Under the pieces are notes generated by a model. It had not been told where the DNA came from and did not search any database. It was given only the letters and a program-made list of their open reading frames with translations. From contig JBBIVB010000001.1 of the NCBI GenBank assembly GCA_037439965.1, forward strand, positions 31,895 through 95,894: a DNA stretch of 64,000 nt. Reading direction: 5' to 3'. The stretch is from Candidatus Veblenbacteria bacterium. Lineage in GTDB: Bacteria; Patescibacteriota; Patescibacteriia; Veblenbacterales; UBA10138. A program made the translations under genes and the position numbers. Every line of letters begins with the position of its first letter. Position 1 is the stretch's first letter. Positions 3,657 through 62,503 of the stretch are shown here, piece after piece.

Positions 3657-3674
3657 GATAACCTTAAAATTAAA

Positions 3675-42350: not shown

Positions 42351-42357
42351 AAAACTA

Positions 42358-43410
42358 TTACCTTATCTCGGTTGATTCCCGCGGCGGCAATAATAAATCT
42401 TTGGTGTGTTCCAAATCTTCTAAAATTATCCCTGCACCCCTGACTACACAAGTTAAAGGATCATCAGTTACTTGCACTGGAATAAACAATTCCGCTGATA
42501 TCAACTTATCTAAGCCTTTTAGCAACGAACCGCCGCCCACCATAATAATTCCACGCTGGTATATATCGGCTGCTAATTCTGGAGGGGTTTGCTCAATAGT
42601 AGACCTAATATTTTCAATAATTAACTTAATAATCTTAAGTAAAGCTTCTCTGATTTCTGTTTCACTTACCATAACCTCTCGCGGTAAACCAGTAATTAAA
42701 TGACGTCCGCGGACATTTATATTTAAAGGTTTGCTTTGTGGTATAGCTGAACCAATTTTTATTTTAACTTCCTCAGCAGTCTTTTCACCAACCAATAAAT
42801 TAAAATTTTCTCGTAAATAATGAATGATGCTATCGGTTAACTCATCACCAGCGACGCGTAAAGATTGCGAAGTAACCACTCCGCCTAAGGAAATTACCGC
42901 AATTTCTGTAGTACCACCGCCAATATCAACCAACATATTACCACTAGGGTCCCTAACAGGTAATCTAGCACCCAAAGCTGCAGCCATTGGCTCCTCTACC
43001 AATAAAACTTCCCTGGCGCCAGCTGATAACGCCGCGTCTTCTACTGCTTTACGTTCTACTTCAGTTACATCTAATGGAATACCAATAACTACTCTTGGCC
43101 TAGCTGCTAATCTAAAACCTTCTTTGTGCACGCGGTCAATAAAATATTTAAGCATTTTTTCTGTTACTTCAAAATCAGAAATAACACCATCTACTAGGGG
43201 TCTGGTAGCAATAATATGCGGCGGGGTTTTACCTAACATTTTTCTAGCTTCTTCTCCTACAGCTAAAATTTGATCCGAACGAGTATTCACCGCCACGATT
43301 GATGGCTCATTAATAATAATTCCCCTATCCTTCACATAAACCAGCGTATTAGCCGTGCCTAAATCTATAGCCATATCACGACTAAAGGCGGCAAATAACT
43401 TCTTTAGCAT
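42358..43410 (-). CDS. mreB: Rod shape-determining actin homolog MreB
   Basis: IDLGTANTLVYVKDRGIIINEPSIVAV phosphate-1 motif, 350 aa, full actin-fold motifs. Confidence 0.9.
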   Translation of the reverse strand: MLKKLFAAFSRDMAIDLGTANTLVYVKDRGIIINEPSIVAVNTRSDQILAVGEEARKMLGKTPPHIIATRPLVDGVISDFEVTEKMLKYFIDRVHKEGFRLAARPRVVIGIPLDVTEVERKAVEDAALSAGAREVLLVEEPMAAALGARLPVRDPSGNMLVDIGGGTTEIAVISLGGVVTSQSLRVAGDELTDSIIHYLRENFNLLVGEKTAEEVKIKIGSAIPQSKPLNINVRGRHLITGLPREVMVSETEIREALLKIIKLIIENIRSTIEQTPPELAADIYQRGIIMVGGGSLLKGLDKLISAELFIPVQVTDDPLTCVVRGAGIILEDLEHTKDLLLPPRESTEIR

Positions 43411-43443
43411 ACGCCTAAAGTTTAACTCTTTTTAATTTTTTGT

Positions 43444-44697
43444 CTAGACCTTGCGCTGAATAATAATTTTATTCAGCAACTCTTTAAGAGTAACGATTTT
43501 AATTTCATCGGTAGCGCGATTCTTTAATTCCACTTTATCTTTGGTTTTTTCACTCACCACTGCACGTAAAGGCAAACCAATTAGATCAGCATCATTAAAT
43601 TTTAAACCAGCCGATTCATCACGGTCGTCATACAATACCTCTATGCCTTGCTTTAATAAAGATTGATATAATTTATCAGCCGCGGTTTTAATTTTTTTAT
43701 CCTGACCTAAAACCAACAAGTGTACTAAATATGGCGCCACACTAGCAGGCCAAATAATTCCTTTATCATCATGGTTTACTTCTACAATAGTTCCCATTAC
43801 TCGCCCCGGACCAATACCATATGACGCCATCACTACTGGATGTTTTTTTCCAGACTCATCAGTATAAAATAAACTTAAAGCTTCGGAAAATTTAGTTCCC
43901 AGTTTGAAAATATTTCCTACTTCCACACTTTTACCATAATGCAAAATTCCTTTATGACAAATTGAGCAGGTTTTGTCTTCTTGACCTTTGGCTAATTCGG
44001 CATTTTGGGCAAAATTACAGTTATCACAATAAATTATAGCGTCCTCACCGGCTTCAGTTAAAACCTGAAATTCGTGGCTATATTTCTTGGTAAAAGCACC
44101 ACCCGAAGCCTCCACAACCAAAGCTTTTAAACCACATCTAGCAAATATTTTAAGATAAGCAACCTTAACTACTTCATAATATTTATCTAAATCATCTTCA
44201 GAGGCGTGAAAACTATATAAATCTTTCATTACAAACTCGCGTGTTCTAATAATACCTGATTTAGCCCGCGGCTCGTTTCTGAATTTTGTTTGCAATTGAT
44301 AAACGTACTTGGGTAAATCACGATATGAGGAAATAAAACGCTTGGCTATCCGAGTTATTGGCTCCTCGTGTGTCCACGCTAAACCAACAGCAGTACCCGT
44401 CTTCTCATTAAACTTATACATTATTTCCTCTGGTGTTACCCAACGATTAGTTGCTTCCCAAAGCTCCCTCGGCTGCAGCGAAGTCATTTCCATTTCTTGT
44501 CCGCCAATAGCATCCATTTCTTCCCGAATAATCTGCTCAATCTTTTTAAAAACGCGCCAACCCAAAGGAAGATAACTATAGGCACCCGCCATTTGTTTAT
44601 CAACAAACCCGGCTTTAATTAAAAGTTGCGCATTAATCGCCTGTTCATCAGCTGGTACGGTTTTAGAAGTTTTAGTAAATAATTCAGATTGTCGCAT
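43444..44697 (-). CDS. proS: Prolyl-tRNA synthetase, short form lacking the INS editing domain
   Basis: MRQSELFTKTSKTVPADEQAINAQLLIKAGF... N-terminus is near-canonical ProRS. Class II motifs are present. The 417 aa length is far shorter than the ~570 aa bacterial-type ProRS. Confidence 0.8.
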   Translation of the reverse strand: MRQSELFTKTSKTVPADEQAINAQLLIKAGFVDKQMAGAYSYLPLGWRVFKKIEQIIREEMDAIGGQEMEMTSLQPRELWEATNRWVTPEEIMYKFNEKTGTAVGLAWTHEEPITRIAKRFISSYRDLPKYVYQLQTKFRNEPRAKSGIIRTREFVMKDLYSFHASEDDLDKYYEVVKVAYLKIFARCGLKALVVEASGGAFTKKYSHEFQVLTEAGEDAIIYCDNCNFAQNAELAKGQEDKTCSICHKGILHYGKSVEVGNIFKLGTKFSEALSLFYTDESGKKHPVVMASYGIGPGRVMGTIVEVNHDDKGIIWPASVAPYLVHLLVLGQDKKIKTAADKLYQSLLKQGIEVLYDDRDESAGLKFNDADLIGLPLRAVVSEKTKDKVELKNRATDEIKIVTLKELLNKIIIQRKV

Positions 44698-48027: not shown

Positions 48028-49140
48028 TTAAAACCTCCATAACTTACTAACCGCCCCCAAAATGGAATTGCCAAATTTAAGTAAATCTTGATAAGTAATT
48101 AAAACTATCAGCAGTATTAAAAACACAAAGCCAATTTGATGCACCATAGCCTCTATTTTTTCATTATTAGGTTTACGTCTAATTTTCTCAATAATTACAA
48201 ATAATAATCGCCCACCATCTAAAGCTGGAAAAGGCAGAATATTAATAATGGCTAAATTTACTGATAGCAGTGCGGCGAACTGTAAAACATAAATCCAACC
48301 TAAATCAACTACTTGCCCGGTTAATACCGCGATACCCACCGGACCCACTACCTCAACTCCAGCTTGATGAGTAACTATTAAATTTCTAATTATCATTACA
48401 AAACCATTGACTATTTCATAAAGCAATATGCCAGTAGATTTAACCCCCATCCATAAAGATTGATACCAAGGATAAGAAATAATACCTGTTTCCACCAAAG
48501 AAACACCCATTACTGCACTATTACCAGACTGCTCCAAAATTTTAGGCGTTACTGTTACTTTTACAGTTTCGTTTCCCCGCGATAACTTTACCTCCATAGG
48601 AATATCTTTATGCCCTGCAATAAAATCCTGCATTACCTGTAAACTCATAAAATCATAGTCATTTATAGTAACCACGACATCGCCTGGTTTAATACCAGCC
48701 TCATGTGCCGGTGAATTAGGCAAAACGCTAAAAATCTGAATCTTCACATCTCTGGCATCTTTAATATTAGTTTCGTCTACTATAGTCGGTAAACCAGAAA
48801 CAAAACCAATAGACAATAAAATAAAGCACAAAACAACATTCATCACTACACCGGCTAATAAAATTATAGAGCGCTGCCAAGGTTTTTTAGCGGCAAAACT
48901 ATCGGGGTCGCGATTCTCACCAGATTCACCTTTTAACTTAACAAACCCGCCTAAAGGTAACCAATTTAAAGAATAACGCGTGCCGCTTTTCCTTAGCGTG
49001 CTTAGCAAGCGGGGTGGAAAACCAAAACCAAATTCCTCCACCTTAACGCCTAAAATTTTAGCCGAGACAAAATGACCAAGTTCGTGAGCTAACACTAACA
49101 AGGCAAGGATAGCAACAAAAACGATGATGGTAGTAAGCAT
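48028..49140 (-). CDS. rseP: Site-2 protease RseP (M50 zinc metalloprotease with PDZ domain)
   Basis: HELGHFVSAKILGV HExxH motif in TM1, a central PDZ domain, LDGG motif, 370 aa. Confidence 0.8.
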   Translation of the reverse strand: MLTTIIVFVAILALLVLAHELGHFVSAKILGVKVEEFGFGFPPRLLSTLRKSGTRYSLNWLPLGGFVKLKGESGENRDPDSFAAKKPWQRSIILLAGVVMNVVLCFILLSIGFVSGLPTIVDETNIKDARDVKIQIFSVLPNSPAHEAGIKPGDVVVTINDYDFMSLQVMQDFIAGHKDIPMEVKLSRGNETVKVTVTPKILEQSGNSAVMGVSLVETGIISYPWYQSLWMGVKSTGILLYEIVNGFVMIIRNLIVTHQAGVEVVGPVGIAVLTGQVVDLGWIYVLQFAALLSVNLAIINILPFPALDGGRLLFVIIEKIRRKPNNEKIEAMVHQIGFVFLILLIVLITYQDLLKFGNSILGAVSKLWRF

Positions 49141-49209
49141 AGTTTCTGGATCCTAGTTTATAGTTCATAGTTCTTTTTTACTAGGAACTAATGGCTAGGA
49201 ACTAATAAA

Positions 49210-49764
49210 TTAAATGGTCATAATTTCTTTTTCTTTCGTCTCCCCTAATTTCTTAATCTGTTCGTTAAAATTATCTACTATTTTCTGCAATTCTTTTTGT
49301 GCACTAAATAACTGGTCTTCGGAGATTTCGCCGTCCTTTTCCTGATTTTTTAAATTTTTATTTATATCTTCCCTAATGTTTCTAATCTGCACTCTAGCTT
49401 TTTCCAAAATACCGTTCATTAATTTAATCAATTCTTTTCTGCGCTCTTCGGTTAATTGGGGTAAATTGACCCTGATTACCTGACCATCTACTTGAGGTGA
49501 TAAATCAAGCGAAGAGGTGGTGATGGCATTGGCTATATCTTTAATAATATTTTTATCCCAGGGTTGAATTAAAATCTGCCTAATTTCCGGGGTGGTAATA
49601 GAAGCCAATTCAATTAACTTAGTTTTAGTATCGTAAGCTTCTACTAAAATATTTTCCACTAAGCTAGGGCTAGCTCGACCGGTACGTAAAGCACCTAATT
49701 CTATCTTTAAATGCTCAATAGTCTTATTAAAACGTTCTTGATCAATACTAGGTATTTGACTCAT
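49210..49764 (-). CDS. frr: Ribosome recycling factor
   Basis: 184 aa with the typical RRF three-helix bundle sequence and conserved C-terminal EKEIMT-type end. Confidence 0.9.
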   Translation of the reverse strand: MSQIPSIDQERFNKTIEHLKIELGALRTGRASPSLVENILVEAYDTKTKLIELASITTPEIRQILIQPWDKNIIKDIANAITTSSLDLSPQVDGQVIRVNLPQLTEERRKELIKLMNGILEKARVQIRNIREDINKNLKNQEKDGEISEDQLFSAQKELQKIVDNFNEQIKKLGETKEKEIMTI

Positions 49765-49775
49765 AAATTTTAAAA

Positions 49776-50804
49776 TTACTTACTTACTCCTAAATACATA
49801 ACACGGGGGTCTTCTGGTTTTATTATCAAAGCGGTAGCAGATTTTTTAGAAGGGATAAACCGCGTAATCCAGGTTTGCCCTGCATCGTTAGAGTAATAAA
49901 TTAGATAACTAATAGCATAAAATATTTCTTTATTGTTTTGGGGGTTAATAGCTAGAGTATTAATTCCTACGGCACTAGGTGGGGTTACTAAATTCATTAA
50001 AGACCAGGTTTTACCACCATCAGTAGTCTTAAACATACCTACTTGCGTAACATAAATAAAACTATCAGTCTCCCCTGGTATAAAACTAAATTGCCTAAAA
50101 ACTCCTGGCCTGCTATTAACTTTTTTGATATTAGGTAATAAATCTTCCCAACTCTGTCCTCTATCAATACTGCGCCATAAAGCTTTGCTGGGCATAGCTA
50201 CGTATAACACACCTGATTTATTTTGAAAAATTCTGGTTACCTCCTTTTCAAAACGAAAAACAGCTTGCCAGCTAATACCTGCATCTAAACTTTTCAGCAT
50301 TGTTCCCTTACTAGTAGTAACATAAACAATATTCGGCGAGTCGATGTCTAAAATAACATCATTTAAACGAGTTTCTGGGGTGGCCTCGGTATAAAGAATT
50401 TGCCAATTCTCTCCTCCGTCTTCAGTTTTAAGTAAACGATTGCTGGCTGCTATATACACTACATCTTTTTTAAATGGATGCAAAGCTACGCTATTAATAG
50501 GCCCTTTATAATATTGCCGCCAATTTTCTCCTTCATCGGAAGTTACATAAAGGCCCGCACCTGCTGAAAAGAGATAGATTGTTTTACTATCCAAAGGTGA
50601 AAAAACTAAACGATGTACATTAACGTTATCTATAGTTATATCTTTATTCTTCGATTTTGCCACAAACGCTTTGTGTTGCCAAGTAATACCTGCGTCTTCA
50701 GAACGAAACACTCCGCCGTCAGAAGGGGTTTTGCTTGCATTAAAGCCGTAACTACAACCAAATAAAACTAATACTAAAGGAATTAAAAACCATATTTTTT
50801 TCAT
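49776..50804 (-). CDS. Lipoprotein with seven BNR (Sxx-D-x-G-x-[TS]-W) repeats, Ycf48/sialidase-like beta-propeller
   Basis: Lipobox LFGC. Repeats SEDAGITWQ, TSDEGENWR, TEDGGENWQ, SLDAGISWQ, SIDRGQSWE, TTDGGKTWS, SNDAGQTWI. Confidence 0.55.
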   Translation of the reverse strand: MKKIWFLIPLVLVLFGCSYGFNASKTPSDGGVFRSEDAGITWQHKAFVAKSKNKDITIDNVNVHRLVFSPLDSKTIYLFSAGAGLYVTSDEGENWRQYYKGPINSVALHPFKKDVVYIAASNRLLKTEDGGENWQILYTEATPETRLNDVILDIDSPNIVYVTTSKGTMLKSLDAGISWQAVFRFEKEVTRIFQNKSGVLYVAMPSKALWRSIDRGQSWEDLLPNIKKVNSRPGVFRQFSFIPGETDSFIYVTQVGMFKTTDGGKTWSLMNLVTPPSAVGINTLAINPQNNKEIFYAISYLIYYSNDAGQTWITRFIPSKKSATALIIKPEDPRVMYLGVSK

Positions 50805-50812
50805 AGGTAATT

Positions 50813-51751
50813 TTAGGATAAATTAATGAATAACCATTCAAAAGTTAATTTAATATTGCTATTAGCTTTGATTTTTTTAATTGCTTCATTTAATAATTTA
50901 ATTATTCTAACTAAATCAGATTCAGTGGTAAATGCTAGTAAACCCTTAAAATCTTCATATAAAGCGTAATACCTTATACGTTCAGATAAACCATACTTAT
51001 ATAATATCAAATCTCGTGCTACTTCCAAAAATACTCCTAATAAACCAAGTGCCTCATCTTGGGATAAAGATTCAAGGTTAATCTTAACCATGGCGCCTGA
51101 TGAAGCTTGTTTTCTTAAGATAACTAGAAATTCCCGAGCTTTCACTAACCTTCCCTGCCACTGCTCTTTGTTTTGCCAAACATCATAAGCCTGCCCTGGT
51201 ATTCCTTGGGCTAAATGTACCAATTCTTCAACTTGCGAAGCAGGAATTTTTAAATTTTTAAGCCATTGCTGCAAATCAACTGTTGACACAGGACCTAAAT
51301 TTATTAATTGACAGCGGGAAATTATAGTGGGTAATAAATTTTTGGCATGTTCGGTAATCAACAATATAACTCCTTTACCTAGAGGTTCCTCTAAAGTTTT
51401 AAGCAAGGCATTAGAAGCCTCCTCATTCATTCTTTCTGCTTCTTTAATTACCACTATCCGATAATTTTTATTCCAAGAATCAAGATGTAAAAAATCTATG
51501 GCTTGTCTAATTTGATCAATAAGAATTTCTTTTTTATCTTCTAGTCTAGCAAGCCAAAGTACATCTGACAATGATTTGTAATTAGTATCAGGGGGAAGAT
51601 TATTAAGCTGCTGAATAAAAAATTTAACCAAAGTGGTTTTACCTACACCCCTAGGCCCAGTAAACAAATAGGCATGTGCTAATTTCTTTTGTTCCACTAT
51701 TTGCTGCAAATACTTTTTAGCTAAATTGTGGCCAATAACTTGCTCTGACAT
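50813..51751 (-). CDS. holB: DNA polymerase III delta' subunit (clamp loader)
   Basis: AAA+ module with YLFTGPRGVGKTT Walker A variant and SRC-like motif, 312 aa. Confidence 0.65.
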   Translation of the reverse strand: MSEQVIGHNLAKKYLQQIVEQKKLAHAYLFTGPRGVGKTTLVKFFIQQLNNLPPDTNYKSLSDVLWLARLEDKKEILIDQIRQAIDFLHLDSWNKNYRIVVIKEAERMNEEASNALLKTLEEPLGKGVILLITEHAKNLLPTIISRCQLINLGPVSTVDLQQWLKNLKIPASQVEELVHLAQGIPGQAYDVWQNKEQWQGRLVKAREFLVILRKQASSGAMVKINLESLSQDEALGLLGVFLEVARDLILYKYGLSERIRYYALYEDFKGLLAFTTESDLVRIIKLLNEAIKKIKANSNIKLTFEWLFINLS

Positions 51752-51843: not shown

Positions 51844-52935
51844 CTAACTTCCAGCTTCTAATCTTTCCAATACCTGCCAAGTAATGAAAGCTGTTTTATC
51901 CCAACCAAATTTCCGTAACCTTTCCTTACCCAAAGAAACTAATCTATTTCGTAAATCATTATCATTAATTATAATTTGCATCGCTCGCAGCCAAGCAGTT
52001 TCGTCATGTGAAGACACTAAAATTCCTGCCTCACCAACCACTTCAGGTAAAGCTCCTGCTTGAGCAGCTACTACAGGCACCCCAATTTTCCAAGCATCTA
52101 ATACTGGCAAACCAAATCCTTCTAAATTACTAGGAAATAATAATGCCTTAGCGCTAGCTAAATATTTGGCTAACTGTTGTTCTTCTAACCAACCAAGAAA
52201 TTTAACTTTATTGGTTAGTTGCAACTGTTTTAATTTTTTAAGCAAGCTCTCCCCTCCTCGTCCTAGAGAACCAACTAAATATAGCTTTATCTCATTAGTT
52301 CTATTTTGTTTGACAAAATTAGCATAAGCTTCAAATAACATACTTAAATTCTTTTTAGTTTCAACTCTGCCAATAACTAAAAAATAATCCTCGTTGATCT
52401 TTTGTTCTTGAGTTTCTGATAAAGTAGGGCCCAGAGGTGAAATGAAAATTTTATTTAGAGTAAAGGGATAATATTTTTCTAAATTATCTTTAGTATATTG
52501 AGATACAGTTAAAATAGCCCGAGCTTTATAAGCCGCCCACCAAGTAGTAAGCCGTAAATACCAGCGACTTTTAATACTATAAGATTCTGGAGAAAATTTC
52601 CAACTAACATCATGAATGGTAACTACTGAAGATATTTTAACAAAAAAAGGTAAAATATGGGAAGGAATAAAAAGTATATCTGGTTTATCTTGGTTCACTT
52701 GCCAAGCCAAACGTAATTGGCTCCATAAAAACTTTGGCGGCCATTTTAATATTTTAACTTGCCAATTATTTGGTAATTTTCCTAAGATGTCACCAATATC
52801 GCGACGAGAATACAACATCACCCCAACTTCGGCTGGAATAACTTTTATTAATTCTCTTATTAAACAATAACTATAATACTCTACACCGGTTTTGGCATAA
52901 GGTTCCAATCGCGAAGCATCAATAGCTAATTTCAT
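51844..52935 (-). CDS. Glycosyltransferase family 4
   Basis: FPSNLEGFGLPVLDAWKIGVPVVAAQAGALPEVVGEAGILV motif. Confidence 0.7.
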   Translation of the reverse strand: MKLAIDASRLEPYAKTGVEYYSYCLIRELIKVIPAEVGVMLYSRRDIGDILGKLPNNWQVKILKWPPKFLWSQLRLAWQVNQDKPDILFIPSHILPFFVKISSVVTIHDVSWKFSPESYSIKSRWYLRLTTWWAAYKARAILTVSQYTKDNLEKYYPFTLNKIFISPLGPTLSETQEQKINEDYFLVIGRVETKKNLSMLFEAYANFVKQNRTNEIKLYLVGSLGRGGESLLKKLKQLQLTNKVKFLGWLEEQQLAKYLASAKALLFPSNLEGFGLPVLDAWKIGVPVVAAQAGALPEVVGEAGILVSSHDETAWLRAMQIIINDNDLRNRLVSLGKERLRKFGWDKTAFITWQVLERLEAGS

Positions 52936-52937
52936 AA

Positions 52938-53945
52938 TTAACGCACGGATAAAATACTGCGTTTATATGATTCCAAATTATCCAAAGCAATGGCCGTACC
53001 TTTAGCCACACACAACATCGGTTCATCAGCAACATAAGCCGCCACTCCGGTTGCTTGACTAAACAATTTATCAATATTTCTTAATTGTGAAGTACCACCA
53101 GCTAATATCATACCCTTATCTATAACATCAGCTGACAATTCAGGTGGAGTTACTTGTAACACTGATTTTAATGCTTGAATAATACCCTCCAATTGACTTT
53201 GAATAGCATCAGTAATATCATCAGAAGTGATGGTGATAATTTTAGGTAAACCAGTTACCAAATCACGTCCTTTAACCTCCATGACTAACTTATCATCCAT
53301 ATACATAGCTGAACCAATTTTAATTTTTGCCTCCTCAGCCGTGCGTTCGCCAATTGCTAAGCCGTACTTTTTCTTAATAAAATCCATAATAGCGTAATCA
53401 ATCCTAGTACCGCCGATTCTAACTGAAGTATTAGCCACAATACCGCCTAGGGAAATTACCGCCACTTCGCTGGTACCACCGCCCATATCAACAATCATAT
53501 GGCCGGAAGCCGAACCAATTGGTATATTAGCGCCAATAGCTGCGGCAATCGGTTCTTTAATAATGTAAGCAGCTTTGGCTCCAGCCGCAATAGTAGCATC
53601 AATAACCGCGCGACGTTCAGTAGAAGTAATACCAGCCGGCACCGCGATCATCACCTCGGGTTTAAATATTCTTAAACCACCTAAAGCCTTGCTAATAAAA
53701 TAACGTAACATTGCTTCGGTGGTACGGTAATCAGCAATTACACCTTCTTTTAGTGGTCTAGAGGCTATAATCGTATCGGGCGTACGTCCTAACATCTCCC
53801 TGGCCTCATCACCTACTGCCAAAATTTTGTTATCCGCCACTGAAATAGCCACCACTGATGGCTCATTAATAACAATACCCCTGCCTGGTAAATGCACTAA
53901 AGTATAGGTCGTTCCTAAATCAATACCAATTTTTTTATTAAACAT
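52938..53945 (-). CDS. Second MreB-family actin homolog (MreB/Mbl-like paralog)
   Basis: IGIDLGTTYTLVHLPGRGIVINEPSVVAI phosphate-1 and GGGTSEVAVISLGG phosphate-2 motifs, 335 aa. Clearly homologous to, but diverged from, the mreB at 42358-43410. Confidence 0.8.
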   Translation of the reverse strand: MFNKKIGIDLGTTYTLVHLPGRGIVINEPSVVAISVADNKILAVGDEAREMLGRTPDTIIASRPLKEGVIADYRTTEAMLRYFISKALGGLRIFKPEVMIAVPAGITSTERRAVIDATIAAGAKAAYIIKEPIAAAIGANIPIGSASGHMIVDMGGGTSEVAVISLGGIVANTSVRIGGTRIDYAIMDFIKKKYGLAIGERTAEEAKIKIGSAMYMDDKLVMEVKGRDLVTGLPKIITITSDDITDAIQSQLEGIIQALKSVLQVTPPELSADVIDKGMILAGGTSQLRNIDKLFSQATGVAAYVADEPMLCVAKGTAIALDNLESYKRSILSVR

Positions 53946-53967
53946 AATCCCTTATATACGCGCGTTT

Positions 53968-53996
53968 ACTTTAACTAAAAAAACGCTTCACGTCAA
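53968..53996 (-). promoter_or_regulatory. Candidate promoter for the MreB paralog (TTGACG-17-TAAAGT on minus strand)
   Basis: The reverse complement of 53991-53996 is TTGACG; a 17-nt spacer follows; the reverse complement of 53968-53973 is TAAAGT. Confidence 0.3.
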
Positions 53997-54494
53997 CGCG
54001 CTTAAAATAAATAACAATAAAATTAGCGTAGTTTATTGAATTATAAAAATTGCCTGCCAAATAATTATCTATAATTTTTCTGCTATGAAAAATACGTTAC
54101 TAGGTAAATTTTTTAAATTAAACCACCGCCACTCCACTATCTTTTCTGACTCACAGGCCTTTAGTTCTCCATAAAAAGTTACACAATAAACCATGAGCGT
54201 TAGTGGTCATACATTACTTAAAGAAAATACTCGAACTATTTTAGCTACCAACGTTGTTTCCTCCTGAAATTCTCTTATTGCCGCCTGTTTAGAAGTTTCA
54301 CTAAAACGAATTTTGCCCATTTAAACCTAATAAAATTTTACTATCTTTTAAGACCATATTTTGGTAAACTATATAAATAGGCATATCCAGATGATACTCA
54401 AAAAGATAGAATGACATCTCCACGCATTAAAACTTTAAAATGTCTCGGTATAATCTCTAATTTAGCTTTATCTTTCCTCATAGAATCAAGTTGA

Positions 54495-55325
54495 TTATTT
54501 TTCTTCACTCGCCGGATGAGGCACTTGCAAACCCCATTTGTGGAAATATTTAAGCCAAGAGGTAATATGAATCCAAGTAGTTTTATTAAATAATCCCCAA
54601 AACGAGGCGCCGGCTGATTGACGTTGATGATAATGCACCATCGCAACATCAGCCACATAATAAACCTGCCAATCTTTTTGCCAAAAGCGCCGACACCAAT
54701 CAGTATCCTCTACATATAAAAAGTAACGTTCATCTAAAAATCCCACTTGCTCCAAGGCTTCTCGTCTGATAATCAAACAAGCGCCTAAAAGCCAATCCAC
54801 AGGACGATTGTCTTTATGGTCCCAATCTAACATTAAATAACGAGTTAAAGCTTTTTGAGCACGCGGCAAATAGCCTAAAGGTGTACGCCGAAAAATCGGC
54901 ATCCAGAAACGCGGAAAAGTATAAGCCGAAATTTGCACCGTACCGTCAGGATTAATTAATTTAGGTGCGGCAATGCCTACTTTAGGATGAGTATCCATAA
55001 AATCAATTAATTTATCTAAAGTATCTGGCATCACTGCTACATCAGGATTTAAAATCATCACATAATCACCTTGAGCTCTTTTTAATCCAAGATTATTACC
55101 AGCGGCATAACCACGATTTTCTTTTGCTACTAAAGTTATGACTTGCGGCCAATTGTTTTTAACTATTTCCAAACAATTATCATGTGAATTATTATCCACC
55201 ACAATAATTTCTAAAGGCACTTTACTAGGATTATTCAACACACCTTTAACACACTGCTTAACCAAACCAGCATTTTTATAATTTAAAATAATTAATGATA
55301 ATTTAGGCTTGTTCATAAAAACCAT
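54495..55325 (-). CDS. Glycosyltransferase family 2
   Basis: LSLIILNYKNAGLVKQCV...IIVVDNNSHD...ENRGYAAGNNLG GT-A motifs (DxD region), 276 aa. Confidence 0.7.
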   Translation of the reverse strand: MVFMNKPKLSLIILNYKNAGLVKQCVKGVLNNPSKVPLEIIVVDNNSHDNCLEIVKNNWPQVITLVAKENRGYAAGNNLGLKRAQGDYVMILNPDVAVMPDTLDKLIDFMDTHPKVGIAAPKLINPDGTVQISAYTFPRFWMPIFRRTPLGYLPRAQKALTRYLMLDWDHKDNRPVDWLLGACLIIRREALEQVGFLDERYFLYVEDTDWCRRFWQKDWQVYYVADVAMVHYHQRQSAGASFWGLFNKTTWIHITSWLKYFHKWGLQVPHPASEEK

Positions 55326-56395
55326 TTTCTAATTTCTTTACTAGTTATAATGCGTTGACTTTTACTTTGGCGTCGACGAGATAAAGTTTTAGGTGCGAGT
55401 TTAAAAAATTGGCCAAGAGATTTTATTAGCACGATTGGTTCAAATAGCAAACGATAAATAAATTTTTTGAATTCATACCATAAAATATATGGTAAATGCC
55501 TTATAAAATTATTAAGGTAATCATTTTTTAATAAAGTTAGCCAGTGATTGCGGCAAGAATAAACTCGCAAAAATGAAGGCCATTTGCGGCGACTTTGCCA
55601 AATAGATTTAAAACCATCACGTGGTGATAAGCTTCTATCATGCCAAGCTACGCCGCTGGTTACTAACCACGATTCCCAACCAGCCAACCGCAGACGCCAA
55701 GCTAAATCTACATCTTCTTTATAACTAACAAAACTTTCATCTAAAACCTCACCGTTCACACTAACTGATTCTAAAGCCAAGCGCCGATATAATGGCGCTG
55801 CACCATCTACACCAAAAACCTCTATCGCTTCTTTAAATTCATCTTGATTTACCTCGCCTTCCCGAAAGCGATAAACATAGCGACTTTTTTTAATAGCTAA
55901 TCCACCGCTATCAATAATGGCTTGCTTAAATTGGGGGGGCATAATTAAATGTTCATTAATATTTTCTCGCCAGCGAAAAATTTTACCTTGCACCGCGCCT
56001 ACTTGCGGCGAGGCTTCTAGACACTCTTTGAGTCGGAATAAATAATCATGATGTAAAACCACATCTTGATTTAAAAACATTACATAATCACTATTAGTCC
56101 ACTGCAATGCCTGATTATGCGCCCTACCAAAACCTAAATTTTTATTATTGCGCACTATCCTAGCATGCCTAGAAAGCGTTGGGTGTAAATATAAAAATTC
56201 GTCAATAATTTTACGTGAGTTATCTATTGAGGCGTTATCTATAATTAAGAGAAAAAAATCACGCTCTGTTTGGTTAATTAACCCAGTTAAACAATAGGGT
56301 AAATATATTTCCCCATTATAAACAATTAGGTGTACAGAAATTTTATAATCCGATTTATTGTTCATTACTTCCATTATGATAAAGATACAAACCAA
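55313..56395 (-). CDS. Glycosyltransferase family 2
   Basis: SVHLIVYNGEIYLPYCLTGL...LIIDNASIDNS...KNLGFGRAHNQAL motifs, 360 aa. Confidence 0.65.
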   Translation of the reverse strand: MVCIFIIMEVMNNKSDYKISVHLIVYNGEIYLPYCLTGLINQTERDFFLLIIDNASIDNSRKIIDEFLYLHPTLSRHARIVRNNKNLGFGRAHNQALQWTNSDYVMFLNQDVVLHHDYLFRLKECLEASPQVGAVQGKIFRWRENINEHLIMPPQFKQAIIDSGGLAIKKSRYVYRFREGEVNQDEFKEAIEVFGVDGAAPLYRRLALESVSVNGEVLDESFVSYKEDVDLAWRLRLAGWESWLVTSGVAWHDRSLSPRDGFKSIWQSRRKWPSFLRVYSCRNHWLTLLKNDYLNNFIRHLPYILWYEFKKFIYRLLFEPIVLIKSLGQFFKLAPKTLSRRRQSKSQRIITSKEIRKWFL

Positions 56396-57869
56396 TTACT
56401 AGCCAAGCACCAATTCCTAAAGGATGATTTAAATAAGGTGTGGTAATGTTAGTTATAGCTAAAGAGAACAAACACATTAATCCTAATAATAAAATTGGTG
56501 AGATATTTTTAAGTTGTCTTAAATTTTTTATTGCCAATTTAAAGAAAAAATATAAGTAAACCGTTAAAGCTAATAAACCAAACTTTAACCACATATCTAA
56601 ATAACCCCATTCAAAAGCATAAGTAGTATACCAAGATTGACCTACGATTGATTGGCTTACTATCATCGGATCAGTAGTAAGATAAGTAACGGTGGTACCA
56701 AAACCACTACCAAGCAACGCGTGCGGTGCAATTTTTTGCCACAATGGCGCTAAAAGCTGCAAACGAGCAATGCCAGCTGCTTCTCCTATACTTCCCGTTA
56801 AACGATCTATTAAAATATTTTGTCCAATATACGCTATGGGGCGAGGTAAAGGAAATTGTGCTACACCAAAATATAAACCTATAGCTATTGCGATTAAAAA
56901 TAAATTTACTAAAACACCTTTAATTAATCTTATAAAATTATGCCTAGATCTAGATAATAATAACCAGAGTAAAGCTACTAGCCAGGCCACTACAAATCCT
57001 AGCCAAAAACTGCGCGACAAACTAATAACCAAAGCTAATAGTTGAAAAATAATAAACAAACACAAATTTGTTTTAGTTTTTAAAAAAGTGGTAATTGATA
57101 AATTATCTTTAATAAAAATAAAGCAAATATATAGCAAACCTAATAAAGAGGATAGTAAAACAAAAATCTGCGATTGCGAAAATATTCTAAAAAACGGCCC
57201 ATAAAAATAACTAATTTCTCCAAATCCCGTATCTCTAAACCAATGATATAAAGGGCTAAGATCTAAAGAAGTAAAGTGGCTATAAAAGTAAAAAAAGATA
57301 ATAGTTTTGAAAGCTAAATAGCTAAGCGTTGGCCACAATACTAGCTTTAATTTATGCCAAAACTCCGACCAGCAAAGTAAAAGTGGCAAAAAGATAGCTA
57401 AATAAAAATAAGCATTTAAATCTAAAAACCAATCAGCAAAATTATTGTGCCAAAACCCTAAAATTGCAGCCCAAAGTATAGCCAAAATTGACAAAAGCCA
57501 AGCGTAAAATAATTTATGGTGTCGTAAATTTTGCCGCCAAGTTAAACCTGCCTCGGGTGATAATAACTTAATTACAAATACTGCCATTAGAATAAGAAAC
57601 CAAGCTATACGGATAGATATTTGTCCGCCATTCAAAGTTAAAAAGAATAAATAACCTTTAGAACCTAAGATTAATTCGGTAAAAAATACTACTAAGGCCA
57701 AAGGTAAGGAATTAAAACTTAAAATTAAAAATCCTGTCACTAATATTATAAAAATTACATTCCCTAATAATTGGTTTTGGAACGCCAGTAAAGATAATAA
57801 ATCGACTACTAAAAAAATCAAAGCAAACCACAAATATTTTTCTAATATTGTTTTGTTTCCAAATGCCAT
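56355..57869 (-). CDS. Polytopic membrane protein, O-antigen ligase/polymerase (Wzy)-like
   Basis: 504 aa with more than 10 TM helices and a larger external loop near the C-terminal third. Sits in a GT/flippase cluster. Confidence 0.4.
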   Translation of the reverse strand: MAFGNKTILEKYLWFALIFLVVDLLSLLAFQNQLLGNVIFIILVTGFLILSFNSLPLALVVFFTELILGSKGYLFFLTLNGGQISIRIAWFLILMAVFVIKLLSPEAGLTWRQNLRHHKLFYAWLLSILAILWAAILGFWHNNFADWFLDLNAYFYLAIFLPLLLCWSEFWHKLKLVLWPTLSYLAFKTIIFFYFYSHFTSLDLSPLYHWFRDTGFGEISYFYGPFFRIFSQSQIFVLLSSLLGLLYICFIFIKDNLSITTFLKTKTNLCLFIIFQLLALVISLSRSFWLGFVVAWLVALLWLLLSRSRHNFIRLIKGVLVNLFLIAIAIGLYFGVAQFPLPRPIAYIGQNILIDRLTGSIGEAAGIARLQLLAPLWQKIAPHALLGSGFGTTVTYLTTDPMIVSQSIVGQSWYTTYAFEWGYLDMWLKFGLLALTVYLYFFFKLAIKNLRQLKNISPILLLGLMCLFSLAITNITTPYLNHPLGIGAWLVIGLYLYHNGSNEQ

Positions 57870-58708
57870 AATTTAGAAATTAAATCTAAAATCCAAGCTT
57901 GCGTCAAGGCTACTAAACAACAAATTTTAATAATTAACCAAGTTAAAATAGAGTGGTGTTTGCGGAAAAAATAACTTACACTGTGGTTAAAAATCAGTTG
58001 ACGTTTAGTATGGCTTAACTGTCTAAAACTAGCTCCGGCTATATGGGTAGCAGTAACCTCTGGTACATACCAAATTTCCCAGTCAGTATCTTGAGCTCTT
58101 TTACAGTAATCTACTTCTTCAAACCATAAGAAGAAATTTTCATCCATCACACCAATATCTTTTATTAATTTACGATTGATAAAAAAATAAGCACCACTCA
58201 CCTGCTCTACTATTTGTATCTTTTCATAATCAAAATCCTGAGCAAGATAATTATTTAACAATCGTGGTAACAAATAACCTAACTTTAACAAAACTACAAC
58301 TTGCGAAAATAAAGTAGGCTGACGCCTAACTGATTTTTGAATACTGCCATTACTATTAAATAGCCTGCCGCCTACTATACCAGCTTTTTGGTGTTCTTTA
58401 AAAAATAAAATCGCCAGTTTCAAAGCACCTGGTTTTACTTCGGTATCAGGATTTAATAATAAAATAATCTCTTGAGTAGAGCGAATGATCCCTTGATTAA
58501 CTGCAGCAGCAAAACCAAAATTAATTTCCTTGGCTAATAAAATTACTTGGGGAAATTCTTGCCTTACTATCTGAGGGCTTCCATCTGCCGAATTATTATC
58601 CACTACTATAATTTCTTGCACCTCTTCGGCTAATAAAGATTTAAGACATAATCTTAATTTATCTTTTACATTCCAAGAAACTATGATAACTGAAATTGGT
58701 AACGCCAT
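57842..58708 (-). CDS. Glycosyltransferase family 2
   Basis: ISVIIVSWNVKDKLRLCLKSL...IIVVDNNSADGS GT-A motifs, 288 aa. Confidence 0.7.
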   Translation of the reverse strand: MALPISVIIVSWNVKDKLRLCLKSLLAEEVQEIIVVDNNSADGSPQIVRQEFPQVILLAKEINFGFAAAVNQGIIRSTQEIILLLNPDTEVKPGALKLAILFFKEHQKAGIVGGRLFNSNGSIQKSVRRQPTLFSQVVVLLKLGYLLPRLLNNYLAQDFDYEKIQIVEQVSGAYFFINRKLIKDIGVMDENFFLWFEEVDYCKRAQDTDWEIWYVPEVTATHIAGASFRQLSHTKRQLIFNHSVSYFFRKHHSILTWLIIKICCLVALTQAWILDLISKLWHLETKQY

Positions 58709-58712
58709 AAAA

Positions 58713-59966
58713 TTACAACTTAGCTAATATTTTATCCATCATAAAAGCTAAACGACTTTGCCAGCTTTGCTCACGAGCAAATTCTCTCCTTTGAAGTCTT
58801 AACTGCTCATTGTCCTGTGCCAACTCTTCAATTATTGCCTGATTAAATTTTTCTGCCGTATCAGCTATTTTAATCAAATTGCCCAATTTATCCGTACCAG
58901 CTGTGGGTGTAGTGACAACCGGTTTACCTAACGCCAAATATTCAAAAATTTTAAGCAAACTAGTGTATTTACCAAAATCATTAACTAAATGAGGCACTAT
59001 TGCCAAATCAAACTGATTGATATAAGAAGGAACTTCCTCGTAATGCTTTCGCCCTAAAAAATAAATATTATTATAAGCTCTTAATTTATCTTTTACCTGC
59101 TGTCTAAAATTGGCCCATACCGGACCTACCAGCACTATTGATTTTTTAGGATTTTCCCGAGCCAAATAAGCTATTAAATCCAAATCAATTCTATCCTGTT
59201 GGATAATACCCACATAACCAATAATCGGACGAGGCAGAGTAGCAATATCGCGATTAACTAATTTTGGTATTTGAGCAAACTCCTCCCAGCGCACGCCGTT
59301 AGGTAAGTAATAAATGTCCTGTCCACGCCCAAAAAATTTAACCAACTCTTCAGCAGTAGTAAAGATTAAATCGGCGTTCTTGGCAATATATTTATAATTA
59401 TTTTTTAAGCGTTCTTTAATTTTCTGATAAGCTGAATGCTCTAACCAATTATCCACTGCGTCAAAAACCTTAACACGTGCTGGTAAAATATCTAAATACT
59501 TGGTAAAAGTAGGCAGGTAAGACCAAATGATAATATTTTTCAAATTAAGTTTCTTAATCTGTCGGCGTAACTCAGCCATCATTAAATTTTCGCTAAAATA
59601 AGAAAGATAACTAGATAAAACAAATAATTTATAACTGACTTCTTGGGCAGAACCTGTAGTTTTAAAAATTGTTTTATTAATTTCCCAATTACTGATGGCA
59701 GTTACACGAGTATGTGGACACCAATGCATTAACTTACCTTGTGGTCCGCGCAAGATATTTTGTACTAATACTTTTACTGCTCTTTTTAAGGTAAAAGGCA
59801 GATAATCAATAGACACTATTTTACGAACATTGGGGTGATTTAATAAACCATGCAAAATATGGCTGTTACGATTAACAAAGCCGGACTGCCATTCGCTGTA
59901 GGCTGACATATTAAACATCACTATATCCACCTTGGCCGCTGTTTTTTTTGCATCAACACTAATCAT
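58713..59966 (-). CDS. Glycosyltransferase, GT-B fold (GT4-like)
   Basis: C-terminal ...LGRKHYEEVPSYINQFDLAIVPH...GKPVVTTPTAG resembles a GT4 nucleotide-sugar binding region. The family assignment is uncertain. Confidence 0.45.
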   Translation of the reverse strand: MISVDAKKTAAKVDIVMFNMSAYSEWQSGFVNRNSHILHGLLNHPNVRKIVSIDYLPFTLKRAVKVLVQNILRGPQGKLMHWCPHTRVTAISNWEINKTIFKTTGSAQEVSYKLFVLSSYLSYFSENLMMAELRRQIKKLNLKNIIIWSYLPTFTKYLDILPARVKVFDAVDNWLEHSAYQKIKERLKNNYKYIAKNADLIFTTAEELVKFFGRGQDIYYLPNGVRWEEFAQIPKLVNRDIATLPRPIIGYVGIIQQDRIDLDLIAYLARENPKKSIVLVGPVWANFRQQVKDKLRAYNNIYFLGRKHYEEVPSYINQFDLAIVPHLVNDFGKYTSLLKIFEYLALGKPVVTTPTAGTDKLGNLIKIADTAEKFNQAIIEELAQDNEQLRLQRREFAREQSWQSRLAFMMDKILAKL

Positions 59967-59971
59967 ATATT

Positions 59972-61051
59972 TTAACGAATGGTAAAGATAACCGATGTTT
60001 GGTCTTGAAGATTTAAATAATAATTAAAACGTTGCTGACTTTTGCTAGCTAACTCCTGCCTTAAATTATCATTACTTAAAAGCCTTTGTAAAACATTCAC
60101 TAATTCAAGGTGGGTATCAGCATATAATCCAGCTTCACCTACTGCCTCAGGTACGCCACCTACCCTACTTGCTACCACTGGTTTGCCAAAACCCATAGCT
60201 TCTAAATACACCATACCAAAACCTTCTATATCTATTTGATTATTAAGGGGTGTTAGCACAAAGCAATCACATAAATTATACCAAGATACTAATTCTTCCT
60301 GAGATACTCTGCCTGTCATAATAACAGGCAGATTTATTTGTTTAGCTTGTTGTTCTAATTTATCATATTCTGGACCTTCGCCCACTATCACATAAACCCA
60401 ACTATGATCAGATTTAGCAACTTCGGCCAAAGCTTCTAATACCCTAGCAATTCCTTTTCTGGCAACTAACCGCGAAACTGTTAAAATTACTCGCCGCTGT
60501 TTTAAATTATATTTTTTTACCAAAGCACCTTGGATAGCAGTGGTGGATTTAGCTGGTTCTAAACATAAAGGATATAAACAATTAATTTTATTTTTAGCCA
60601 AATTAAAATCAGCTAATAAACTAATAGTAAACTGACTATTGGCTACCACTTTGGAAGCCTTTGTTAAAATTTTACCAGCCAACCATTTTTTCCACCTAGA
60701 CACTTTAGCTAACTGAACATCTAAACCATGAACTGAAACTATATATGGCACTTTAATAAAATAATTTAACAACCAAACGGCGGTACCTATTGGCAATAAA
60801 TTACCAACTAAAACTCCTTGAGCTTTGGCTATTTTTAAATATTTTGGTATTAACCATAATAAAGGCAACCATTTAGGCCAAATAACAGAGCTATAAAAAT
60901 TTTTCCGATAAATGCCGTGCTCCTCTGAACCTGGTACACAAGTTAATACAGCTAAATGCGGTTGCAAATGTTGTACCAAGCGAGCATAATAATTAGCCAC
61001 CCCTCCAGTATGAGGCAAATAATCAACTGTTACTAATAATAAACGTTCCAT
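59972..61051 (-). CDS. Glycosyltransferase family 4
   Basis: EGFGMVYLEAMGFGKPVVASRVGGVPEAVGEAGLY motif. Confidence 0.7.
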   Translation of the reverse strand: MERLLLVTVDYLPHTGGVANYYARLVQHLQPHLAVLTCVPGSEEHGIYRKNFYSSVIWPKWLPLLWLIPKYLKIAKAQGVLVGNLLPIGTAVWLLNYFIKVPYIVSVHGLDVQLAKVSRWKKWLAGKILTKASKVVANSQFTISLLADFNLAKNKINCLYPLCLEPAKSTTAIQGALVKKYNLKQRRVILTVSRLVARKGIARVLEALAEVAKSDHSWVYVIVGEGPEYDKLEQQAKQINLPVIMTGRVSQEELVSWYNLCDCFVLTPLNNQIDIEGFGMVYLEAMGFGKPVVASRVGGVPEAVGEAGLYADTHLELVNVLQRLLSNDNLRQELASKSQQRFNYYLNLQDQTSVIFTIR

Positions 61052-61054
61052 AAG

Positions 61055-62503
61055 TTAAATTTGTTGGCGTTTAAAAACTATTTTTAAAAAATCAGATAAC
61101 TCGCGGAGCGCCAACGCGCGCAACAACAAAATAGCTAAAGCATAAACTACTGCACCTATTATCACTAATAAAAAAAGATTAACTAAGGGTAATAAAATAT
61201 AAATAACTAATGACATAATCACTGCTGCCAAAAAAATCTTACCGGTTGCCCAACCTATCGCCCCAAAATCAACCTTTATCAAACTAGGTACCACTACCAA
61301 ACCCAATAGGAAATATATTATTGAACTAGCTAGAGAACTGATAGCCGCGCCCACTGCGCCATATTTGGGTATTAAAATAAAATTCATAATAATACTAACT
61401 ATCACAGTGATGGCTAAATTACTAGTGTTACGACGCTGCTTGTTACCTGCGCTTAATAGCGAGCCGACGGGAAAAGTCAAAAATAAGAAAATTAAACTTA
61501 ACATTAATATCTGCAATGGCAAAATAGAATGACCATATTTTGGATAAATAATAGGAATTACCGAGGGCGCTAAGACTATTATCCCAGTAGCCAAAGGAAA
61601 AGAAATTAAATTTAAATAGTGAATAGATTTAGCAAAGGTTTTATATAATAGCTCCTGGGAAGAAACAAAAAAGGCACTAAAACCAGCTAAAAGTGAAGCG
61701 GCGAAGGCTGAAGGAATAAATTGAAAAGCAAAAGTAATTTTATAAGCCACACTATAAAAACCAACTTCCCTATCACCTGCTAACAGAGACAATAAGACGG
61801 TATCTAAATAACTATAAATTCTTGTCAGGATTAAAGTCAAACCAAAAGGCCAGGCTAAAATTAATAAATATTTAATAACATCTTTATCAAATTTTGGCCA
61901 TAAATTAATTTCATATTTAACTTTTAATTTATACCAAGAATAAATCAAATTAACCAAACCGCCAATAATTAAGGCTAGTATCAGCCACCTTAAATCACGG
62001 CTTAATTGGAGAATAGTAAAACCAGACAAAGCTACTACTATTTGAAACAAAACCGTCCCCAAGCTTTCCCACAATAAATTTTGAAAAGCACGAATTAAAG
62101 AATAAGCCGAGAACACTAAAGAATCTAAAACCGTCATTATTGAAGCAATATAAACCAATTGTCTAGTTAATAAAGGATAATTTAATAAATTAATCAATAA
62201 AAATATCAAACCCACAGCTACTAATAAAGCTATTATTTTAAAACCGATTACATTTTGCCAATAACTTTGGGCTTTAAATTTATCTTTAGATACTTCAGTG
62301 ATTAAGACATATCCCAAACCCACATCAATCAATACTGAAAAAATAGCAGTAAAAGATAAGGTAAAAACATATTTACCAATATCTTCTGGTAAAAATATTC
62401 TAGCTAAATAAGTAAAATATAAAAACGAAATTACTTTTTGAGTAATCAATGCTAAGACAAAATATGTGGTATTGCGGGCAAGTACTCGCGGCTCTAAATA
62501 CAT
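61055..62503 (-). CDS. Wzx-like polysaccharide flippase (MOP superfamily)
   Basis: 482 aa with 12-14 predicted TM helices. Located at the head of the minus-strand GT cluster. Confidence 0.6.
   Translation of the reverse strand: MYLEPRVLARNTTYFVLALITQKVISFLYFTYLARIFLPEDIGKYVFTLSFTAIFSVLIDVGLGYVLITEVSKDKFKAQSYWQNVIGFKIIALLVAVGLIFLLINLLNYPLLTRQLVYIASIMTVLDSLVFSAYSLIRAFQNLLWESLGTVLFQIVVALSGFTILQLSRDLRWLILALIIGGLVNLIYSWYKLKVKYEINLWPKFDKDVIKYLLILAWPFGLTLILTRIYSYLDTVLLSLLAGDREVGFYSVAYKITFAFQFIPSAFAASLLAGFSAFFVSSQELLYKTFAKSIHYLNLISFPLATGIIVLAPSVIPIIYPKYGHSILPLQILMLSLIFLFLTFPVGSLLSAGNKQRRNTSNLAITVIVSIIMNFILIPKYGAVGAAISSLASSIIYFLLGLVVVPSLIKVDFGAIGWATGKIFLAAVIMSLVIYILLPLVNLFLLVIIGAVVYALAILLLRALALRELSDFLKIVFKRQQI

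Follow-up and report, generated by a model that had tools for sequence, protein, structure and literature searches.

We analysed a 64,000-nucleotide stretch of a Candidatus Veblenbacteria contig (the window; G+C content 33.9%), whose best protein matches were metagenome-assembled genomes (MAGs) of the Candidate Phyla Radiation (CPR; Patescibacteria). The window carries two MreB-family genes: mreB1 (42358-43410), the copy linked to mreC and mreD, and mreB2 (52938-53945), the paralog under study here. The analysis showed that mreB2 encodes a genuine full-length MreB, and that the MreB2 lineage, not the MreB1 lineage, persistently adjoins genes for enzymes that handle UDP-sugar or lipid-linked intermediates at the membrane. 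On this basis we propose, with a probability of about 0.45, that MreB2 is a scaffold for glycopolymer assembly.

Profile searches placed MreB2 firmly in the MreB family. It matched PF06723 (MreB_Mbl) with 427 bits (cut-off 27) over profile positions 2-326 of 327, and it passed the NCBIfam models NF010539 (438.6 bits, cut-off 293) and TIGR00904 (425.7 bits, cut-off 365.75). The nearest solved structures were the MreBs of Geobacillus (7zpt, 364 bits), Thermotoga maritima (1jce, 335 bits), and Caulobacter (4cze, 296 bits), and the next matches after the MreBs were Hsp70 proteins with at most 54 bits. Scores against NCBIfam ruled out MamK (62.6 bits, cut-off 400), FtsA (51.8 bits, cut-off 175.85), BeeR (48.3 bits, cut-off 530), PilM (25 bits, cut-off 133), and MreBH (NF010540, 358.5 bits against an exception cut-off of 515), and zero ParM models were matched in the same profile search, which ruled out ParM. 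Thus, the original prediction was right to call the gene an MreB; it is not an FtsA, ParM, or MamK. MreB2 and MreB1 are 46% identical, and each is at least as similar to reference MreBs from other phyla (46-54%).

The neighbourhood of mreB2 was compared in 80 species-level genome loci (L001-L080), which were picked for their similarity to MreB2 and are not independent of one another in phylogeny. In 73 loci we could read the same-strand gene that follows mreB2, and in 64 of these it was a glycan gene. Most often this was a homolog of GT4a, the glycosyltransferase family 4 (GT4) gene that starts 2 nt past the mreB2 stop in the window; such homologs were found in 43 loci, and 33 of them lay -4 to +12 nt from the mreB2 stop. 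The other glycan neighbours were a Wzy_C or O-antigen-ligase-like gene (10 loci; Pfam 60.8 bits), another GT4 gene (6), a WbaP-like phosphoglycosyltransferase gene (3), and a glycosyltransferase family 2 (GT2) gene (2), while holB (3) or other genes (6) followed mreB2 in the remaining loci. So the slot beside mreB2 is filled by different glycan genes in different lineages, and the enzymes encoded around it almost always act on UDP-sugar or undecaprenyl-linked intermediates at the inner face of the membrane. The upstream neighbour was greA in 29 loci, a DUF4012 gene in 17, and GT2a in 6.

Two arrangements of the mreB2-GT4a pair were seen. The window belongs to arrangement A, in which the order is rpsI, Wzx...GT2a, a variable gene or DUF4012, mreB2, GT4a, holB, a BNR-repeat gene, frr, rseP, proS, mreB1, mreC, mreD, PBP2, and greA, with orthologs of GT2a upstream of mreB2. 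Arrangement B was found in about 29 loci of genomes labelled Komeilibacteria, Parcubacteria, or Nomurabacteria. There the backbone (holB...proS, mreB1, mreC, mreD, PBP2, greA) comes first and is followed by mreB2 and GT4a, then by an unidentified gene, a phosphoglycosyltransferase gene, three GT4 genes, and DUF4012; the spacing from PBP2-greA to mreB2 is 0-8 nt, and mreB2 is still not beside mreC. The occurrence of the pair in both arrangements indicates that mreB2, GT4a, and the glycan genes that go with them shifted as one relative to the housekeeping backbone. The phosphoglycosyltransferase-GT4-DUF4012 module of arrangement B is also present in this genome, on the plus strand at the start of the window (3-6215), followed by murJ, which encodes the lipid II flippase (region to 8261). 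The order holB-BNR-frr-rseP was seen across L001-L080 and in deep lineages, and the BNR gene, which encodes a Sortilin-Vps10/Ycf48-like beta-propeller lipoprotein, was kept between holB and frr in most related loci.

DUF4012 proteins are 650-870 aa long, with 846 aa for the window copy. Outside arrangement B, DUF4012 was the commonest upstream neighbour of mreB2 (17 of the 80 genome loci, and 10 of 13 close metagenome loci among the matches listed; for example L013:8047-9990, L049:7835-9979, and L027:17749-20373), and elsewhere it closes the glycan module. DUF4012 is a candidate third member of the MreB2-GT4a unit.

The deeper set consisted of the contexts of distant MreB2-like proteins and a broad metagenome sample, 80 further loci among the matches listed, and the counts in this paragraph are to be read within those matches. 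A P0144-type protein from a Patescibacteria MAG, 49% identical to MreB2, has a GT4 gene 5 nt downstream, whose best match was GT4a (32% identity, 98% coverage) and which is followed by two more GT4 genes. Proteins of the P0125, P0132, and P0126 types have WecG/TagA (GT26) downstream and murB nearby. In CPR lineages 52-67% identical to MreB2, and in the P0123 type, the order is murA, mreB2, holB, (BNR), frr, rseP, proS, mreB1, mreC, with murA upstream in 9 of 18 loci of the former and 3 of 4 of the latter; murA was also upstream in 8 of 13 loci of Chloroflexota-like (P0128-type) MreBs. A murA gene directly upstream of an MreB gene was seen in L082, L092, L098, L102-L105, L110-L113, and L138-L162, and may mark an old murA-linked MreB lineage. 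In Firmicutes, mbl is also found in a murA/spoIID/spoIIID neighbourhood. By contrast, none of 31 MreB1-like control loci had a murA or glycosyltransferase neighbour, and mreC was downstream in 16 of the 23 that were assessable. The synteny with glycosyltransferase genes thus held across relatives and was specific to the MreB2 lineage, and with about 160 related loci (80 genome and 80 metagenome) a genome-unique or chance co-localisation was rejected.

A neighbour-joining (NJ) tree was built from 230 sequences, namely 80 MreB2, 33 MreB1, 113 representatives of 50%-identity clusters, and the four reference MreBs of E. coli, Geobacillus, T. maritima, and Caulobacter; all trees in this work were NJ trees. 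MreB2 orthologs formed an exclusive clade (bootstrap 100/100), MreB1 formed a clade with two extra representatives (97/100), and the two clades lay at opposite ends of the tree. MreB2 belongs to one of two old Patescibacteria MreB lineages. The deeper nodes had bootstrap values of 0-36%, so we claim nothing about the origin of MreB2 relative to the MreBs of Firmicutes, Chloroflexota, or other groups, for which the NJ order is at most suggestive. Taxon labels were recovered for a few of the nearest representative clusters and read Patescibacteria, Chloroflexota, Brachyspira, and Synergistota. The labels of many MAGs are unreliable; L001, L002, L010, and others have Patescibacteria-like content and synteny under titles of "uncultured Gammaproteobacteria bacterium" (third party annotation assemblies), which looks like a placeholder or mislabel. 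One representative in the library, P0121, is a 1010-aa protein with an N-terminal Ser/Thr-kinase-like region and two tandem MreB domains, an architecture that we do not recognise from any protein known to us.

Comparison over the same 33 genomes showed a mean identity of 83.4% for MreB2 and 71.6% for MreB1, and MreB2 was the more conserved copy in 528 of 528 genome pairs; the mean for frr and rseP was 49.6%. The original prediction had called the paralog diverged, which is true against Pfam and NCBIfam profiles and Gram-negative reference MreBs, but within Patescibacteria MreB2 is the copy that has changed less. Between named candidate phyla, MreB2 orthologs share 73-96% identity, and MreB has been listed among the genes that are transferred only among Patescibacteria (PMC12455944). 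Both facts would fit a recent spread of mreB2 by horizontal transfer. Nevertheless, we regard such a spread, or an accidental adjacency, as highly improbable, since pairwise identity in MreB2 rises with that in MreB1 (r = 0.91) and in frr plus rseP (r = 0.87), the flanking backbone is conserved, and the glycan-gene adjacency recurs in most of the readable loci. Because MreB2 divergence tracks that of the other genes, purifying selection with vertical descent explains the high identity better, and recent transfer was rejected as its cause. MreB2 is thus vertically inherited under purifying selection that is stronger than that on the mreCD-linked MreB1.

The two copies also differ in the elements by which MreBs bind membranes and nucleotides. 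MreB1 has the N-terminal extension MLKKLFAAFSRD, similar in length and pattern to the amphipathic helix MLKKFRGMFSND of E. coli MreB. MreB2 begins four residues ahead of IGIDLGT, like T. maritima MreB, and, judged from the sequence, it lacks an N-terminal amphipathic helix and has a hydrophobic loop (ALGG-L-R-I-F-KPE) that aligns with the L93/F94 membrane-insertion loop of T. maritima MreB. The loop consensus in the MreB2 clade is G-G-(L/M/V)-(R/K)-(I/L)-F, with F kept in 79 of 80 sequences, and this loop is the predicted membrane-binding element of MreB2. The phosphate-1 (DLGT), phosphate-2 (D.GGGT), and connect (EP..AA.G) motifs are kept in at least 90% of the clade. In the adenosine motif, the third glycine is replaced by T (62 sequences) or S (18) in 80 of 80 MreB2 sequences, while GGG was found in 32 of 33 MreB1 and 91 of 113 other MreBs, so in the aligned sequences the change from GGG to GGT/S is clade-wide.

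In the scaffold model, MreB2 filaments would sit on the membrane via the hydrophobic loop and would recruit GT4a and the Wzx/Wzy-type assembly enzymes linked to it, or hold them in place. In this way, a secondary cell-wall or surface glycopolymer would be made in spatial coupling with peptidoglycan insertion, which MreB1, MreC, MreD, and PBP2 direct. We favour this model because different glycan genes occupy the same slot across lineages and because the mreB2-GT4a pair moves as a unit. Several points weigh against it. All the evidence that speaks for a functional link is gene order. In the approximately 29 genomes with arrangement B, mreB2 looks like the closing gene of the mre operon. In lineages that share 52-67% identity with MreB2, the immediate neighbours among the matches listed are mostly murA and holB and not glycosyltransferase genes, so the gene may originally have been tied to the supply of peptidoglycan precursors and not to a secondary polymer. 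In the CPR block, holB, frr, rseP, and proS are kept as neighbours just as consistently, although they are functionally unrelated, and since unrelated genes are packed there too, with mreB2 overlapping holB by 10 nt in one deep lineage, tight spacing is no proof of a functional link. The window is dense in division and wall genes, which indicates strong envelope-gene clustering in this genome and bears on how much weight synteny can carry. In the window itself, a decayed gene and 549 bp lie between mreB2 and the Wzx...GT2 genes. For the substrate of GT4a, only generic GT4 matches (MshA, BshA, PimA, and PglJ), below the NCBIfam cut-offs, were obtained from NCBIfam and PDB. The original prediction had taken the paralog as possibly dedicated to the spatial organisation of the polysaccharide pathway; the co-localisation turned out to be conserved and specific, but the step to function is drawn from gene order, and the exclusivity of the link is weakened.

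Many of these points also fit a serious rival, which we consider a real possibility, namely that MreB2 is a second elongasome isoform like Bacillus Mbl or MreBH, co-polymerising or sharing work with MreB1, and that its neighbours reflect how envelope and housekeeping genes are generally packed together in the compact genomes of CPR bacteria. It would account for both copies lying in one same-strand block, (murA)-mreB2-holB-frr-rseP-proS-mreB1-mreC, for mreB2 following PBP2-greA at 0-8 nt in arrangement B, for a peptidoglycan precursor enzyme (murA) upstream in deeper lineages, and for the tight packing of unrelated genes. It fits less well with a slot that is filled, by lineage, with GT4a, another GT4, an O-antigen-ligase-like gene, a phosphoglycosyltransferase, a GT2, or WecG, with a pair that keeps together between arrangements, and with MreB1-like genes that have no such neighbours among the matches listed; MreB2 also differs from MreB1 in its predicted membrane-binding mode and in its adenosine motif. 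A wider form of the scaffold model holds that MreB2-GT4a is a dedicated cytoskeleton-glycosyltransferase module, widespread in Patescibacteria, whose filament chiefly templates a secondary wall or surface glycopolymer instead of guiding peptidoglycan synthases, and that MreB2 is the actin under the tightest constraint in these ultra-small cells, perhaps their main one. We regard this wider form as doubtful.

It seems improbable to us that MreB2 acts outside wall synthesis, for example in cell contraction or motility, in organising pili or host attachment, or in DNA segregation. CPR cells are episymbionts, some Spiroplasma or Myxococcus MreB paralogs serve non-wall roles, and the very strong sequence constraint together with the changed nucleotide motif could fit a specialised mechanical role. 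However, no motility, pilus, or partition gene is conserved beside mreB2 in the approximately 160 loci among the matches listed, and its recurrent neighbours are all envelope-synthesis genes. The link to appendages or host attachment that was suggested in the original prediction is supported by none of our results.

The glycan cluster around mreB2 in the window contains a Wzx flippase of the MOP family, three GT4 genes (GT4a included), three GT2 genes, and a Wzy-like gene, as predicted. The Wzy-like protein (56355-57869) scored below the Wzy_C cut-off (24.1 against 31.7 bits), and Wzy_C was matched by 14 of its 15 orthologs with a best E-value of 1.3e-12; this family cannot separate polymerases from ligases. 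Resemblance to the tua genes was seen in NCBIfam, and equivalog status was rejected on the scores for TuaH (109.6 bits, cut-off 550), TuaC (80.9, cut-off 550), TuaG (49.1, cut-off 400), and TuaB (32.3, cut-off 580). Neither an initiating phosphoglycosyltransferase nor a chain-length regulator was found within 51844-62503, and no protein of the Wzz/polysaccharide co-polymerase type was found among the window open reading frames (ORFs) scanned. A WbaP-like C-terminus is encoded at the window start (3-314, plus strand), approximately 46 kb from the mreB2 cluster.

The gap of 549 bp (53946-54494, minus strand) between mreB2 and the GT2 genes was found to be a decayed NUDIX hydrolase gene with an REFQEETTL box and internal stops. 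L003 and L005 carry intact 148-aa NUDIX genes in the corresponding place, and the remnant shares approximately 50% identity with them across 87 aa. Because the sequence of the remnant is identical in the independent assembly L088, it is not an assembly error specific to the window. The original description, in which mreB2 sits inside the glycan cluster, is corrected by this gap. Upstream of mreB2 we found TTGACG-17-TAAAGT (53996-53968), which matches 9 of 12 consensus positions. The promoter scan found 55 sites against 46.8 ± 8.6 expected from shuffled sequence, which in this AT-rich DNA is not above chance, so the scan by itself carries no weight. However, the element TTGAC(G/T)-N17-TAAA(G/A)T is kept in four of the six close relatives compared (the window, L001, L003, and L005), where the upstream genes differ and the surrounding upstream DNA is unalignable, and this supports a dedicated mreB2 promoter in the sub-lineage. 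So mreB2 in this genome probably has its own promoter, as had been proposed, and is probably co-translated with GT4a. The greA stop directly adjoins the mreB2 start in arrangement B, where mreB2 is probably transcribed along with the mre operon.

Gene decay was also seen between rseP and proS; relatives have 170-300 bp between these genes, whereas the distance here is 3.3 kb (44721-48027, minus strand). Within the insert are a DUF2127 membrane-protein gene (44721-45206) and about 2.8 kb without an ORF of at least 105 aa; blastx identified the latter stretch as remnants of two genes, one with a PPDK_N domain and one with a PEP-utilizers domain, from a family that is found in tandem in related loci. 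Three pseudogenes in about 10 kb suggest ongoing gene decay.

The features of the window are collected in Table 1. All genes of the cluster were found on the minus strand where the original prediction had put them, and the mreB-mreC-mreD-mrdA operon at 39-43 kb was found too, with mreD assigned by position. The transcription order is rplM, rpsI, Wzx, GT4c, GT4b, GT2c, Wzy-like, GT2b, GT2a, the 549-bp gap, mreB2, GT4a, holB, the BNR-repeat lipoprotein gene, frr, rseP, the 3.3-kb stretch, proS, mreB1, mreC, mreD, PBP2, greA, and lysS. The canonical operon is on the same strand as mreB2 and lies approximately 9.5 kb downstream of it; mreB1 adjoins mreC, whereas mreB2 is 9.5 kb from it. Rfam and tRNA scans gave no match within 51.8-62.5 kb.

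Table 1 Annotated features of the 64,000-nt window and the basis of each assignment
Feature	Position	Strand	Basis
mreB2, 335 aa, second MreB-family actin homolog	52938..53945	-	Pfam, NCBIfam, PDB relatives, NJ clade
GT4a, GT4 (GT-B, retaining-type) glycosyltransferase, cytoplasmic	51844..52935	-	Pfam Glycos_transf_1 107.7 bits and Glyco_transf_4
Promoter-like element TTGACG-N17-TAAAGT upstream of mreB2	53968..53996	-	Consensus scan
GT2a glycosyltransferase	54495..55325	-	Pfam Glycos_transf_2 88.3 bits
GT2b glycosyltransferase	55313..56395	-	Pfam Glycos_transf_2 78 bits
Wzy/O-antigen-ligase-like polytopic membrane protein	56355..57869	-	Pfam Wzy_C 24.1 bits (cut-off 31.7)
GT2c glycosyltransferase	57842..58708	-	Pfam Glycos_transf_2 89 bits
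GT4b, TuaH-like glycosyltransferase	58713..59966	-	Pfam Glyco_trans_1_4 45.2 bits; NCBIfam TuaH 109.6 (cut-off 550)
GT4c, TuaC-like glycosyltransferase	59972..61051	-	Pfam Glycos_transf_1 120.5 bits; NCBIfam TuaC 80.9, below cut-off
Wzx-type (MOP family) flippase	61055..62503	-	Pfam Polysacc_synt 100.6 bits (cut-off 28.2); NCBIfam Wzx_EPS 82.6, below cut-off
Backbone 3' of mreB2-GT4a: holB 50813-51751, BNR/Sortilin-like lipoprotein 49776-50804, frr 49210-49764, rseP 48028-49140	48028..51751	-	Pfam
Rod-complex operon with proS, mreB1, mreC, mreD, PBP2/mrdA, greA (38523-39005)	38523..44697	-	Pfam, NCBIfam
mreB1	42358..43410	-	MreB_Mbl 473.8 bits
mreC	41595..42350	-	Pfam
mreD	41085..41594	-	Position; without Pfam match
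PBP2/mrdA	39188..41098	-	Pfam
Second glycan module: WbaP-like phosphoglycosyltransferase C-terminus 3-314 (gene cut by window edge), three GT4 314-3656, DUF4012 3675-6215	3..6215	+	tblastn, Pfam

Elsewhere in the window, division and wall genes were found at 12203-13810 and 28029-33164 (ftsE, ftsX, an M23 peptidase gene, ftsQ/divIB, ddl, and alr). A 492-aa protein encoded at 15226-16704 (plus strand) has a Cohesin domain and a C-terminal Por_Secre_tail domain, which is a sorting domain of type IX secretion; a type IX secretion system is not expected in a monoderm-like CPR genome, so this domain is surprising. Four ORFs of 254, 470, 129, and 144 aa at 23741-25920 and 36052-36916 (both minus strand) had no Pfam match.

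The MreBs of CPR bacteria have been described as two clades, with some Parcubacteria and Microgenomates having both, and different roles have been suggested for them (Takahashi et al. 2020, bioRxiv 10.1101/2020.05.13.095042). MreB1 and MreB2 of the window fit this account and were matched to it by description. That paper is silent on glycosyltransferases, operons, and gene context, and other CPR papers treat MreB merely as a rod-shape marker. In the literature searched we found no description of the linkage of MreB2 with glycosyltransferases or murA, of its higher conservation, or of the motif change. What the present analysis contributes is that mreB2 is linked in gene order to GT4a, murA, and wecG, that MreB2 is the better conserved copy, that the two copies differ in the membrane element, and that MreB2 carries the GGT/S motif.

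Compared with the canonical rod-complex MreBs of E. coli, Caulobacter, T. maritima, and Geobacillus, MreB2 shares the family, the fold, 46-54% identity, and the phosphate-1, phosphate-2, and connect motifs, but it lies away from mreC and mreD, has no N-terminal helix, and carries GGT/S instead of GGG. The murA-linked MreBs (P0128 and P0126 types; Chloroflexota-like and other uncultured bacteria) resemble it in having murA upstream and in lying on the MreB2 side of the NJ tree, but most are without glycosyltransferase neighbours, and with deep support of 0-36% a common ancestry is at most suggested. In B. subtilis, the teichoic-acid enzymes TagA/B/F/G/H/O and the ligases TagT/U are among the proteins associated with MreB complexes (table in PMC6126333), which by analogy may serve as a precedent for the scaffold model. 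MreB, Mbl, and MreBH of B. subtilis with the wall teichoic acid machinery are alike in that there are several isoforms per cell and in the logic of the scaffold model, in which a filament would couple a secondary polymer to peptidoglycan growth. They differ in that MreB2 falls below the MreBH cut-off and in that the CPR glycan genes are of the Wzx/Wzy and GT4/GT2 type, with a resemblance to tua that is below threshold. To our knowledge, the Bacillus isoform genes do not adjoin the tag genes. The cluster resembles other Wzx/Wzy clusters and the B. subtilis tua (teichuronic acid) operon in its Wzx flippase, its Wzy_C-like protein, its several GT2 and GT4 genes, and its NCBIfam resemblance to TuaB, TuaC, TuaG, and TuaH, but the tua scores are far below cut-off, and the cluster itself has neither an initiating transferase nor a chain-length regulator. 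We know of no described Wzx/Wzy cluster that contains an MreB gene.

As far as we know, experiments have revealed almost nothing about envelope construction and shaping in the ultra-small CPR bacteria, of which very few are in culture. All candidate phyla sampled contained the MreB2 lineage, which shows stronger conservation than the canonical copy and a persistent link to glycosyltransferase or murA genes. Identity-based screens may misread so conserved an MreB as horizontally transferred. The MreB2-GT4a linkage gives a testable handle, for which recombinant proteins suffice and culture of the organism is not needed. If the functional link is true, the role of bacterial actin would extend beyond the guidance of peptidoglycan synthases to other glycopolymer pathways, and this would explain why two MreB genes are kept in reduced genomes.

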